From contig CAYYVT010000187.1 of NCBI GenBank assembly GCA_964475215.1, positions 72,334 through 136,333 on the forward strand: DNA of 64,000 nt, read 5' to 3'. Under the pieces are notes generated by a model. The model saw nothing but the letters and a program-made list of their open reading frames with translations. It made no database searches and was not told the DNA's origin. This DNA comes from an uncultured Nitrososphaerales archaeon. Its GTDB lineage: Archaea; Thermoproteota; Nitrososphaeria; Conexivisphaerales; DTJL01. Position numbers and translations under genes: made by a program. Of the stretch, positions 16,654-17,765 are shown piece after piece. Each line of letters begins with the position of its first letter. Positions within the stretch are counted from its first letter, which is position 1.

Positions 16654-16691
16654 CAAGAGGCTGAGCGACTACGGCAGCGCCAAGGCCCAAG

Positions 16692-17765
16692 ATAATAATT
16701 CACGTCGACCTCGATGCATTCTATCCATCGGTAGAGATAAGGCGGAGGCCGGAACTCAGGGGCCTTCCCGTGGTCGTGGGTGCAGATCCGAAGGATGGCA
16801 AAGGACGCGGGGTCGTGCTCTCATGCTCTTATGAAGCGAGGCGCTTTGGGGTCCATTCGGGCCAGCCGATTTCCAAAGCGTTTAGGCTATGCTCCCAAGC
16901 GGTGTTCCTAAGGCCGGATTTCCACCTATACGGGACGACGTCCTCTCGCGTAATGAAGCTGTTGCGGGGTCACGGTGACAAGTTCGAGCAGACGAGCATC
17001 GACGAAGCCTTCCTCGACGTCACACACAGCGTTAGAGACAGTGACGAAGCGAGGGAGCTCGCAGGCCGGATAAAGGAAGAGATTTTCAAGACAGAAGGCC
17101 TGACCTGTTCCATCGGGATCGCGCATAACAAATCCATCGCAAAGATCGCTTCGGACCTGAAGAAGCCTGACGGCTTGGTCGTCGTAGATCCGAACGGAGT
17201 CGAGGAATTCTTGGCGCCACTTCCTGTTTCGGCCATAACCGGGGTTGGTGAGAAGACTAGAAGGTTCCTCAAGGAGAGGGGCGTCGAAACCATCGGCCAG
17301 CTCCAGATGGTGCCAGGCAAGGAGCTTGTGAAGTACTTCGGAAAGGGAGGCGTATGGCTTTGGGGGGTCGCTCATGGCCTGGAACAGGTCGAAGTCATCG
17401 ACAACAGGACGGTCAAGTCCCTCTCCGTCGAGCGCACCTTCGATGAAGACATTTCAGACAGAAGGGTCCTCTTGAAGACCATGAAGGAACTATCTTCCGA
17501 ACTTCGCAAGAGGACGGAGATGGGGAACTTCGAATTCAAGACCGTCGGAGTAAAGATTCGCTTCGAGCACTTCCAGACGTTCACCCGAGAAAGGACCCTG
17601 AGGACCCATGAATCGGGTGAGGTGGTCTTACTGGAACAATCCACCGCACTTCTCGAGGAATTCAGGGATGACACGAGGAAGGTCAGGCTCATCGGCTTGC
17701 GTGTGTCGAACCTCCGGAAGGTTGAGCAGAGGGGCTCCGGTCTTGAAGCTTGGATGAACTCCTAA
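16692..17765 (+). CDS. dinB: DNA polymerase IV (Y-family, Dpo4/Dbh-like), with a probable non-canonical start
   Basis: The Y-family core is [17 protein letters not shown]...[10 protein letters not shown]...[16 protein letters not shown]. The catalytic motif I ([15 protein letters not shown]) is in frame but upstream of the first canonical start, GTG 16770. The frame is open from 16665. I placed the start at ATA 16692. Confidence 0.85.
   Translation: [357 protein letters not shown]

Follow-up and report, generated by a model that had tools for sequence, protein, structure and literature searches.

How a protein can be made from a reading frame in which the catalytic codons precede every canonical start codon is the question raised by the dinB gene, encoding DNA polymerase IV, in a 64,000-nucleotide stretch of archaeal DNA of about 55% G+C (an uncultured Nitrososphaerales archaeon, contig CAYYVT010000187.1, positions 72,334 to 136,333), which is here termed the window. 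The dinB frame opens at 16665, right after the TGA at 16662-16664, continues as GCG ACT ACG GCA GCG CCA AGG CCC AAG ATA ATA ATT CAC GTC GAC CTC GAT and contains no ATG, GTG or TTG until GTG 16770. As the first-pass annotation of this DNA had pointed out, Y-family polymerase motif I (16701-16736), with both of its Asp codons (16707 and 16713), hence lies 5' of every canonical dinB start, and the same annotation was right that a product begun at GTG 16770 would be catalytically dead, since the D-x-D of motif I is encoded upstream of that codon. A run of 35 codons devoid of canonical starts is unremarkable by itself, having a chance of (61/64)^35, or about 0.19; the non-random feature is the placement of a fully conserved catalytic motif inside the start-less stretch. 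Near-cognate initiation, one of three explanations offered initially, is the best explanation of a dinB gene maintained in this condition, and within it we favor main initiation at the near-cognate codon ACG 16671, directed by a Shine-Dalgarno-like element, to which we assign a probability of roughly 0.5.

Judged by its sequence, the gene product is an ordinary DinB of the Y family of polymerases. The Pfam IMS profile (PF00817, E = 5e-48) is covered over positions 1-148 of 148, its first position falling on the fifth residue when the protein is begun at 16692, and the C-terminal little-finger domain is present as well (PF11799 IMS_C, E = 1.1e-19). The match to the solved DNA polymerase IV chain 7yll_A reaches 2e-70 and that to Dpo4 1e-43, and the alignments of solved DinB/Dpo4 chains begin at their residues 2-4, opposite the K/I encoded at 16689-16692. 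The catalytic carboxylates are in place, in HVDLD at 16701-16715 and as the D-E within SIDEA, and of the 89 alignment columns with a conservation of 95% or more in 118 homologues, the window protein keeps all 89. The locus is thus like those of DNA polymerase IV and Dpo4 in its IMS and IMS_C domains and in its D-x-D and S-I-D-E motifs, and differs from them in having no ATG, GTG or TTG upstream of motif I, in the ten-residue leader of the Nitrososphaerota subfamily and in the DUF72 gene that precedes it.

The start-less configuration recurs in independent assemblies, obtained from peat and soil. L001 (JGI 3300018090) differs from the window by 16 single-nucleotide polymorphisms in 11,018 bp (99.9% identity) and is identical in the start region, and two further relatives found through protein-cluster look-ups, L167 (ENA ERZ27251359; 94.9% identity over 13.2 kb) and L168 (JGI 3300035643; 94.3% identity), show the same configuration, both reading ACG GCA GAG CCA AGG CCC AAG ATA ATA ATT CAC. 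A search for closer relatives in GTDB genomes and JGI metagenomes yielded nothing above about 63% identity. Within this clade, and in spite of the lack of a canonical start, substitution patterns indicate that dinB is maintained by purifying selection. The ratio of non-synonymous to synonymous divergence (dN/dS) of dinB is 0.24 between window and L167, 0.27 between window and L168 and 0.28 between L167 and L168, all three genomes being without any canonical dinB start, and the synonymous divergence (dS) among them is 0.11-0.13. The window and L167 genes present 26 synonymous differences in 259 sites and 21 non-synonymous differences in 833 sites (Fisher p = 1.8e-6), and the p values of all three pairs fall between 1e-6 and 3e-6. 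No stop or frameshift occurs in any of the four variants, and the window branch is not accelerated (branch dN of 0.060, vs 0.070 for the more distant relative L002). Eleven neighboring genes of the same pair yield dN/dS values of 0.04-0.24, which places dinB at the relaxed end of its neighborhood.

Comparison with other Nitrososphaerota DinB proteins points to the codons that have changed. The N-termini of these homologues follow the pattern M-x-x-x-x-P-[KR]-I-I-[IMVLF]-H-[VL]-D (P0010, for instance, begins M-A-A-E-K-P-R-I-I-I-H), with the Met 9-10 residues before the His in 63 of the 94 homologues scored and ten codons before it in the closest relatives; in nearly all of about 150 further DinB loci, a canonical start precedes the His by 5-12 codons. 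More than 100 relatives begin at the position that in the window is occupied by ACG 16671. At this family start, ATG is found in L004 (78% amino-acid identity), TTG in L005 and L006 (71%) and ACG in L002 and L003 (80%) as well as in the window, L001, L167 and L168, so that ACG occupies the position in six sequences from two sister lineages; the ACG of L002 is confirmed by L003, a separate Logan assembly. The codon immediately before the His (ATT 16698 in the window) is ATG in L002, L004 and L005, while many other relatives have a codon for Ile, Val, Leu or Phe there. On the other hand, the ATA ATA pair at 16692-16697 represents Ile codons matched in other lineages (ATA ATA in L002, GTA ATA in L004 and ATA ATC in L005), including orthologues with canonical starts, which refutes the recent ATG>ATA mutation that had been proposed. 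From this alignment, the codons that changed are ATG>ACG at 16671 and ATG>ATT at 16698, not ATG>ATA.

The ACG is also old. In a quartet analysis of 12 concatenated syntenic genes (2,441 columns), every one of 1000 bootstraps joins the window to L002 as its sister and leaves L004 and L005 outside, and a single ATG>ACG change in the common ancestor of the window lineage and L002 would be the simplest history. Since the codon is shared by sister lineages whose dinB genes are saturated at synonymous sites (proportion of synonymous differences, pS, of 0.70 between window and L002), it has been kept for a long time.

The region around the ACG provides a further line of evidence. Duplex energies were computed against an assumed anti-Shine-Dalgarno sequence, GAUCACCUCCU, the window having no 16S rRNA gene, and the assumed core is justified by the GGAGG-type motifs seen upstream of confident window starts. 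The element AAGAGGCTGA, in which the TGA that opens the dinB frame serves in a second role, yields -8.1 kcal/mol before ACG 16671 (-7.9 and -8.1 in L167 and L168), compared with medians of -6.4 for 20 confident window starts and -3.8 for random positions, and with -2.6 before the ATA/ATT sites. At the same position, where the shared form is 'GAGG/GGGG.TGA', energies are -12.0 in L002, -7.6 in L004 and a weaker -4.3 in L005, the equivalent elements being GGGAGGGTGA, GGGGTTGA and CCCCTGA, respectively. Counting codons back from the His, the spacing between the end of the element and codon -10 is exactly 6 nt in all four lineages, even as the intervening codons -11 and -12 vary freely among genomes; in L167 and L168, likewise, AAGAGG is invariant and the flanking spacer variable. 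The leader downstream of the ACG is conserved: Ala(-9), P(-7), P(-5), K/R(-4) and I-I are kept between window and L002 despite saturated synonymous sites, and what differences there are fall mainly on codons -8 and -6, which vary across the family. A high proportion of the confident window starts are TTG or GTG (e.g. 15396, 19963, 26609, 27904 and 37387), often after GGAGG-type motifs, and the lineage appears to rely on Shine-Dalgarno pairing and often to tolerate first-position mismatches.

The DUF72 gene, the stop codon of which lies 17 nt before ACG 16671, seems to be a stable companion of dinB. A survey of window positions 15826-17765 and loci L007-L049, L087-L145 and L174 located a DUF72 homologue in 92 of 102 archaeal-like dinB loci (Nitrososphaerota and Bathyarchaeia-like), ending just upstream of dinB in the examples inspected, which suggests that the two genes form a conserved operon and that this DUF72 subfamily may act in DNA repair; a literature search on DUF72 returned only unrelated prefix matches. 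No conserved promoter-like element was found between the two genes across the window, L002, L004 and L005. Given this and the DUF72 pairing, dinB is most likely a distal cistron with Shine-Dalgarno-led internal initiation. An internal promoter, ACTTTTAACA (16646-16655), which would cut the ACG off the mRNA, was considered and rejected, the TATA-like string being made up of a Phe codon and the TAA stop and being absent in L002, L004 and L005. Rfam detected no structured RNA or known RNA family at the dinB start, its only hits being an RNase P RNA and a tRNA elsewhere in the window.

It seems reasonable to postulate, from these comparisons, that an ancestral ATG became ACG (16671) in the common ancestor of the lineage and its sister species, and that the downstream in-frame ATG (16698) later became ATT in the window lineage, leaving no canonical start. 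The small ribosomal subunit would then be placed by AAGAGGCTGA (16655-16664) and the initiator Met-tRNA would start at low efficiency on the ACG, 6 nt 3' of the element, with some additional initiation possible at AUA/AUU 16692-16698. The outcome would be a full-length polymerase in small amounts, which might be tolerable or useful for an error-prone enzyme. We infer here that the ACG is a codon in use, that Met is inserted at it and that weak expression is a selected outcome; in E. coli, an ACG start does give a Met-initiated protein at low level (bioRxiv 10.1101/063800).

Several points weigh against this proposal. The -8.1 kcal/mol of the element corresponds only to about the 10th percentile of random positions in such G+C-rich DNA, with an anti-Shine-Dalgarno that is itself assumed, and the leader conservation stems from one deep comparison (window clade vs L002) with a nominal p of about 0.03-0.05 by our own estimate. 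In trees of DinB alone, the ACG carriers form a clade by neighbor joining but in only 178 of 500 bootstraps, and their monophyly from DinB alone was for that reason dropped and replaced by the 12-gene quartet. Over the first 33 codons, non-synonymous differences inside the clade (1-4) outnumber synonymous ones (0-2), although these are very small numbers, and the ATG>ATT change at 16698, which predates the divergence of the clade (roughly 5%), is yet possibly too recent for visible decay if 16698 was the real start. Finally, AUA, AUU, AUC and CUG initiate in E. coli at 1-2% of AUG vs 0.1-1% for ACG (10.1101/063800), a ranking that would favor the ATA/ATT sites if the archaeon behaves alike.

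Table 1. Coordinates of the dinB start region and of the other genes discussed (window numbering).
Feature	Position	Strand	Details
DUF72 gene, upstream cistron of the DUF72-dinB pair	15826..16653	+	ORF; Pfam PF01904 in syntenic loci; stop TAA 16651-16653
Shine-Dalgarno-like element AAGAGGCTGA	16655..16664	+	GAGG at 16657-16660; ends 6 nt before ACG 16671
dinB (DNA polymerase IV), proposed coding sequence	16671..17765	+	364 codons, then stop TAA 17763-17765; IMS and IMS_C
ACG, proposed main initiation codon	16671..16673	+	homologous to family start, ten codons before His
Leader codons A-A-P-R-P-K, between ACG and Ile run	16674..16691	+	family pattern P-x-P-[KR]
ATA ATA ATT, candidate initiators of the first-pass annotation	16692..16700	+	ATA 16692, ATA 16695, ATT 16698
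Y-family polymerase motif I	16701..16736	+	catalytic Asp codons 16707-16709 and 16713-16715
GTG, first canonical in-frame start	16770..16772	+	3' of motif I; used by automatic gene callers
Second catalytic motif, SIDEA	from 16995	+	dinB frame
Gene for hypothetical 141-aa protein	14858..15295	+	GAGGAG 14858-14863; ACG 14870-14872; stop TGA 15293-15295; possible fallback TTG 14882
ABC transporter ATPase gene	39690..40673	+	CTG 39690 at homologous start; ATA 39699; first canonical start GTG 39747

The alternative that fares best, which we consider possible but doubtful, is initiation at AUA 16692, AUA 16695 or AUU 16698, the start having shifted to ATG 16698 once the ATG at 16671 was lost, and the ATT that later replaced it, or the adjacent AUA codons, still allowing a low level of initiation by third-position wobble with the initiator tRNA. 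The first-pass annotation had named these three codons as the sole plausible initiators, and they do remain a live rival, but ACG 16671, with its homologous position, Shine-Dalgarno-like element and leader, had been overlooked. The ATG of L002, L004 and L005 at 16698 agrees with such a shift and is the start that gene callers pick in those genomes, and the NCBI pipeline has annotated the window gene as a 357-aa protein, 'MIIHVDLD...' (GenBank HYB75608.1), begun at ATA 16692; since translation table 11 does not list ACG, that pipeline could choose only ATA. The E. coli ranking given above and the use of AUU by infC and pcnB (10.1101/063800) also count in favor of the ATA/ATT sites, as does the A+T-rich and probably unstructured nature of the stretch. 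A start at 16692 would produce M-I-I-H-V-D, one residue shorter than the M-I-V-L-F-V-D of Dpo4; the claim that ATA/ATT stand exactly where Dpo4 has its Met is, nonetheless, off by a codon, Met1 of Dpo4 falling on AAG 16689, the codon that immediately precedes the first ATA. Against these sites, their duplex energy is weaker than the background median, and in relatives that possess canonical starts the ATA ATA pair is conserved as Ile codons. Were 16698 the start, the first catalytic Asp would be preceded by 3 residues, against a minimum of 6 in the N-termini of the homologues inspected, and gene-caller starts at 'MH(V/L)D' were rejected as support for a start at codon -1 because two other homologues called from that position, P0060 and P0116, own canonical starts 8-9 codons upstream. 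The hexamer CCAAGG precedes both ATA 16692 (by 6 nt) and ATA 39699 (by 9 nt), but it was discarded as a dedicated ribosome-binding motif, being very common in the window (58 and 46 copies on the two strands) and pairing weakly with the anti-Shine-Dalgarno. An ATA/ATT start, moreover, leaves unexplained the conserved ACG, the element 6 nt before it and the P-x-P-[KR] leader. Hence, ACG 16671 is the better supported initiator, the ATA/ATT codons being plausible ones.

Rather improbable, in our judgment, is a dinB gene that is silent or newly dead, either because ATG>ATT ended translation or because only the inactive GTG 16770 product is made, with decay not yet visible. The missing canonical start is what such a gene would show, its dN/dS of 0.24-0.28 lies at the upper end of the neighboring genes and the first 33 codons display the differences reported above; in addition, DinB is dispensable in many organisms. 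Nevertheless, dN/dS is significantly below 1 (p of about 1e-6) among three genomes that all lack a canonical start, which makes a decaying gene, as initially considered for this locus, unlikely. The marks by which pseudogenes are recognized, namely stops or frameshifts, losses at conserved residues and a near-neutral dN/dS, are not seen: the four variants have no stop or frameshift, the window protein keeps 89 of 89 conserved columns, the window branch is not accelerated, and the dS of about 0.11-0.13 accumulated since the common ancestor represents enough time for disabling mutations to arise.

Very little weight can be given to a start that is recoded in the RNA, by C-to-U editing of ACG to AUG, or supplied from the DUF72 cistron by readthrough or frameshift. 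ACG is the codon turned into AUG by organellar editing, and plant organelles share with the window dinB a genomic ACG at a conserved start position; their ACG>AUG editing (ndhD, psbL) requires PPR-DYW editing factors. Two ACG 'starts' do occur within 2 kb of each other, and the DUF72 frame stays open for 13 codons past its stop, ending in TAA TAA overlapping ATA ATA, in all four lineages. To our knowledge, however, archaea are not known to edit C to U in their mRNA, a candidate editing enzyme was not seen in the window and a third near-cognate start, discussed below, is a CTG, which lies beyond repair by editing. Readthrough or frameshifting out of the DUF72 cistron into dinB was ruled out, the TGA codons at 16620 and 16662 in the dinB frame blocking fusion from upstream and the 13-codon post-stop stretch containing no canonical start. 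Lastly, a start codon misread in sequencing or assembly, for which only the prior that metagenome assemblies contain errors can be adduced and which had been among the original suggestions, is excluded for practical purposes by the presence of the same codons in the window, L001, L167 and L168, four assemblies from different samples that differ by 0.15-5.7% elsewhere (two of them by about 5%), and of the ACG in L002 and L003 as well.

The dinB gene does not seem to be an isolated case. About 45 window genes were compared with their orthologues in L002, L004, L005, L167-L170, L172 and L173, and two further genes with a near-cognate codon at the orthologous start came to light, ACG 14870 and CTG 39690. 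The former belongs to the gene for a hypothetical protein and sits 1.8 kb upstream of the dinB start; its start codon is ACG in the window, L001 and L168, ATG in L167, L002 and L004, and TTG in L005. Among the homologues listed, 20 of 26 are 141 aa long, and the full-length N-termini inspected begin with (M/V)QDVL[IV]D or have this motif a few residues in. The GAGGAG 6 nt before the ACG contributes to a duplex energy of -7.2 kcal/mol, vs +0.1 for the nearby fallback TTG, which in L168 is TTA. For the ABC transporter ATPase gene, the first-pass annotation had proposed the same situation as in dinB, with initiation at ATA 39699; the locus is better read as an ATG>CTG change at the homologous start 39690. 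The N-terminus of this family is M-T-A-I-E-V, the start codon is ATG in L169 and TTG in L170 and L171, and no indel separates the window from L169 in the start region. A TATA-like TTTAAATA at 39645-39652 lies upstream of the gene and predicts a short leader for its mRNA. An out-of-frame ATG at 39673 opens a 9-codon ORF, MWVDQGWRR, whose TAG (39700-39702) overlaps ATA 39699; in L172 and L173 the spacer is 2 nt shorter, which brings the corresponding ATG into the frame of the ABC gene. When ten other stop-to-stop ORFs whose 5' regions are likewise long and start-less were scanned with Pfam, no further truncated domains appeared. Outside the window, a Bathyarchaeia-like DinB locus, L133 (at about 900-930), has TTA in place of the TTG start of the closely related L041 (CAG AAA TTA GCC vs CAG AAA TTG GCC), shortly after a stop codon, and would be either another case devoid of a canonical start or a sequencing error.

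Among close prokaryotic relatives, start codons have been reported to switch from AUG to CUG at 3e-5 and to AUU at 1.6e-5 per AUG start (PMC5622118). Three of about 45 genes is far above these rates, which refer to annotated starts and shorter divergences, and the sample here is small. The frequency of ACG/CTG at starts in other prokaryotes is roughly 1e-4 (PMC5622118). It can be suggested, tentatively and with less conviction than the reading of dinB itself, that start-codon stringency is relaxed in this Conexivisphaerales-like lineage and that ACG (and CUG) are real and evolutionarily stable starts on Shine-Dalgarno-led cistrons. Were this the case, Archaea would have, as far as we know, their first natural set of genes initiated at ACG, and a lineage-specific change in aIF1, in the initiator tRNA or in the small subunit would be indicated or, less likely, C-to-U editing of start codons.

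Near-cognate initiation at ACG and CUG, with initiator Met-tRNA and at reduced efficiency, is known in eukaryotes, as in the adeno-associated virus (AAV) VP2 and Sendai C' proteins, its stringency being set by eIF1. Eukaryotic ribosomes reach such codons by scanning and respond to Kozak context, whereas the window dinB would depend on Shine-Dalgarno positioning on a polycistronic mRNA. The archaeal homologue of eIF1, aIF1, is reported to discriminate against non-canonical starts in Sulfolobus (PMC6237735, PMC8211752). In Haloferax volcanii, ribosome profiling assigned about 30% of putative novel or alternative initiation sites to near-cognate codons, which were set aside there as possible false positives and not analyzed (PMC7261190). 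Archaeal ribosomes can thus pause or initiate at such codons, but those sites belong mostly to alternative or small ORFs, while the ACG of the window dinB would be the sole start of a conserved enzyme. The closest bacterial parallels are infC and pcnB of E. coli (listed in 10.1101/063800), which start at AUU and resemble the window gene in being essential or conserved ORFs with a near-cognate codon as sole usable initiator after a Shine-Dalgarno sequence and with low expression as the presumed purpose. They differ in that their third-position mismatch is experimentally proven and infC is autoregulated via IF3, whereas the proposed ACG start of the window dinB would be a second-position mismatch, subject to archaeal aIF1/aIF2-type initiation. 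In the literature covered by our searches, no archaeal gene naturally initiated at ACG was described.

These results bear directly on annotation. Automatic calls for the start-less dinB give 331 aa from the GTG (P0001 and P0123-P0125) or 270 aa from an internal ATG (calls within P0122-P0126), so that standard gene callers shorten the polymerase to a catalytically dead product, and at least three N-termini would be mis-stated by the annotation of this lineage within 64 kb. If ACG 16671 is used, it would represent a natural archaeal second-position near-cognate start, a type that is common in eukaryotes and almost unknown in prokaryotes, and would combine eukaryote-like initiation factors with Shine-Dalgarno start selection in one organism. 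The role of aIF1 in archaeal start-codon stringency would then be testable on natural substrates, and weak starts would appear to be a means of keeping an error-prone polymerase scarce.

Other features of the window and of the related contigs deserve mention. A LysW-type amino-group-carrier lysine/arginine cluster occupies 33301-39604 (+) and is syntenic with L169, L172 and L173, in the order ArgG, LysW gene (placed by synteny with L169 and L173), LysX, ArgC-like, amino-acid kinase, aminotransferase and M20 peptidase. The contig of the sister species (ena:ERZ25039480 contig_61062; L002 9155-9956, L169 6945-7695 and 8866-9911) has a DUF72 gene truncated at its N-terminus, an amino-acid kinase of reduced length and an M20 peptidase in two pieces; these lesions look like either assembly indel errors or real pseudogenes. 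A homologue of TiaS, the tRNA-Ile2 agmatidine synthetase, named by synteny with L169 and L170, is encoded at 50007-51353 (+), and AUA is therefore expected to be read as Ile in elongation. An archaeal RNase P RNA (Rfam RF00373, 183.6 bits) is found at 47592-47887 (-), for which reason the ORF at 47566-47949 on the opposite strand is not considered a gene, and a tRNA-Pro(CGG) is located at 59412-59488.

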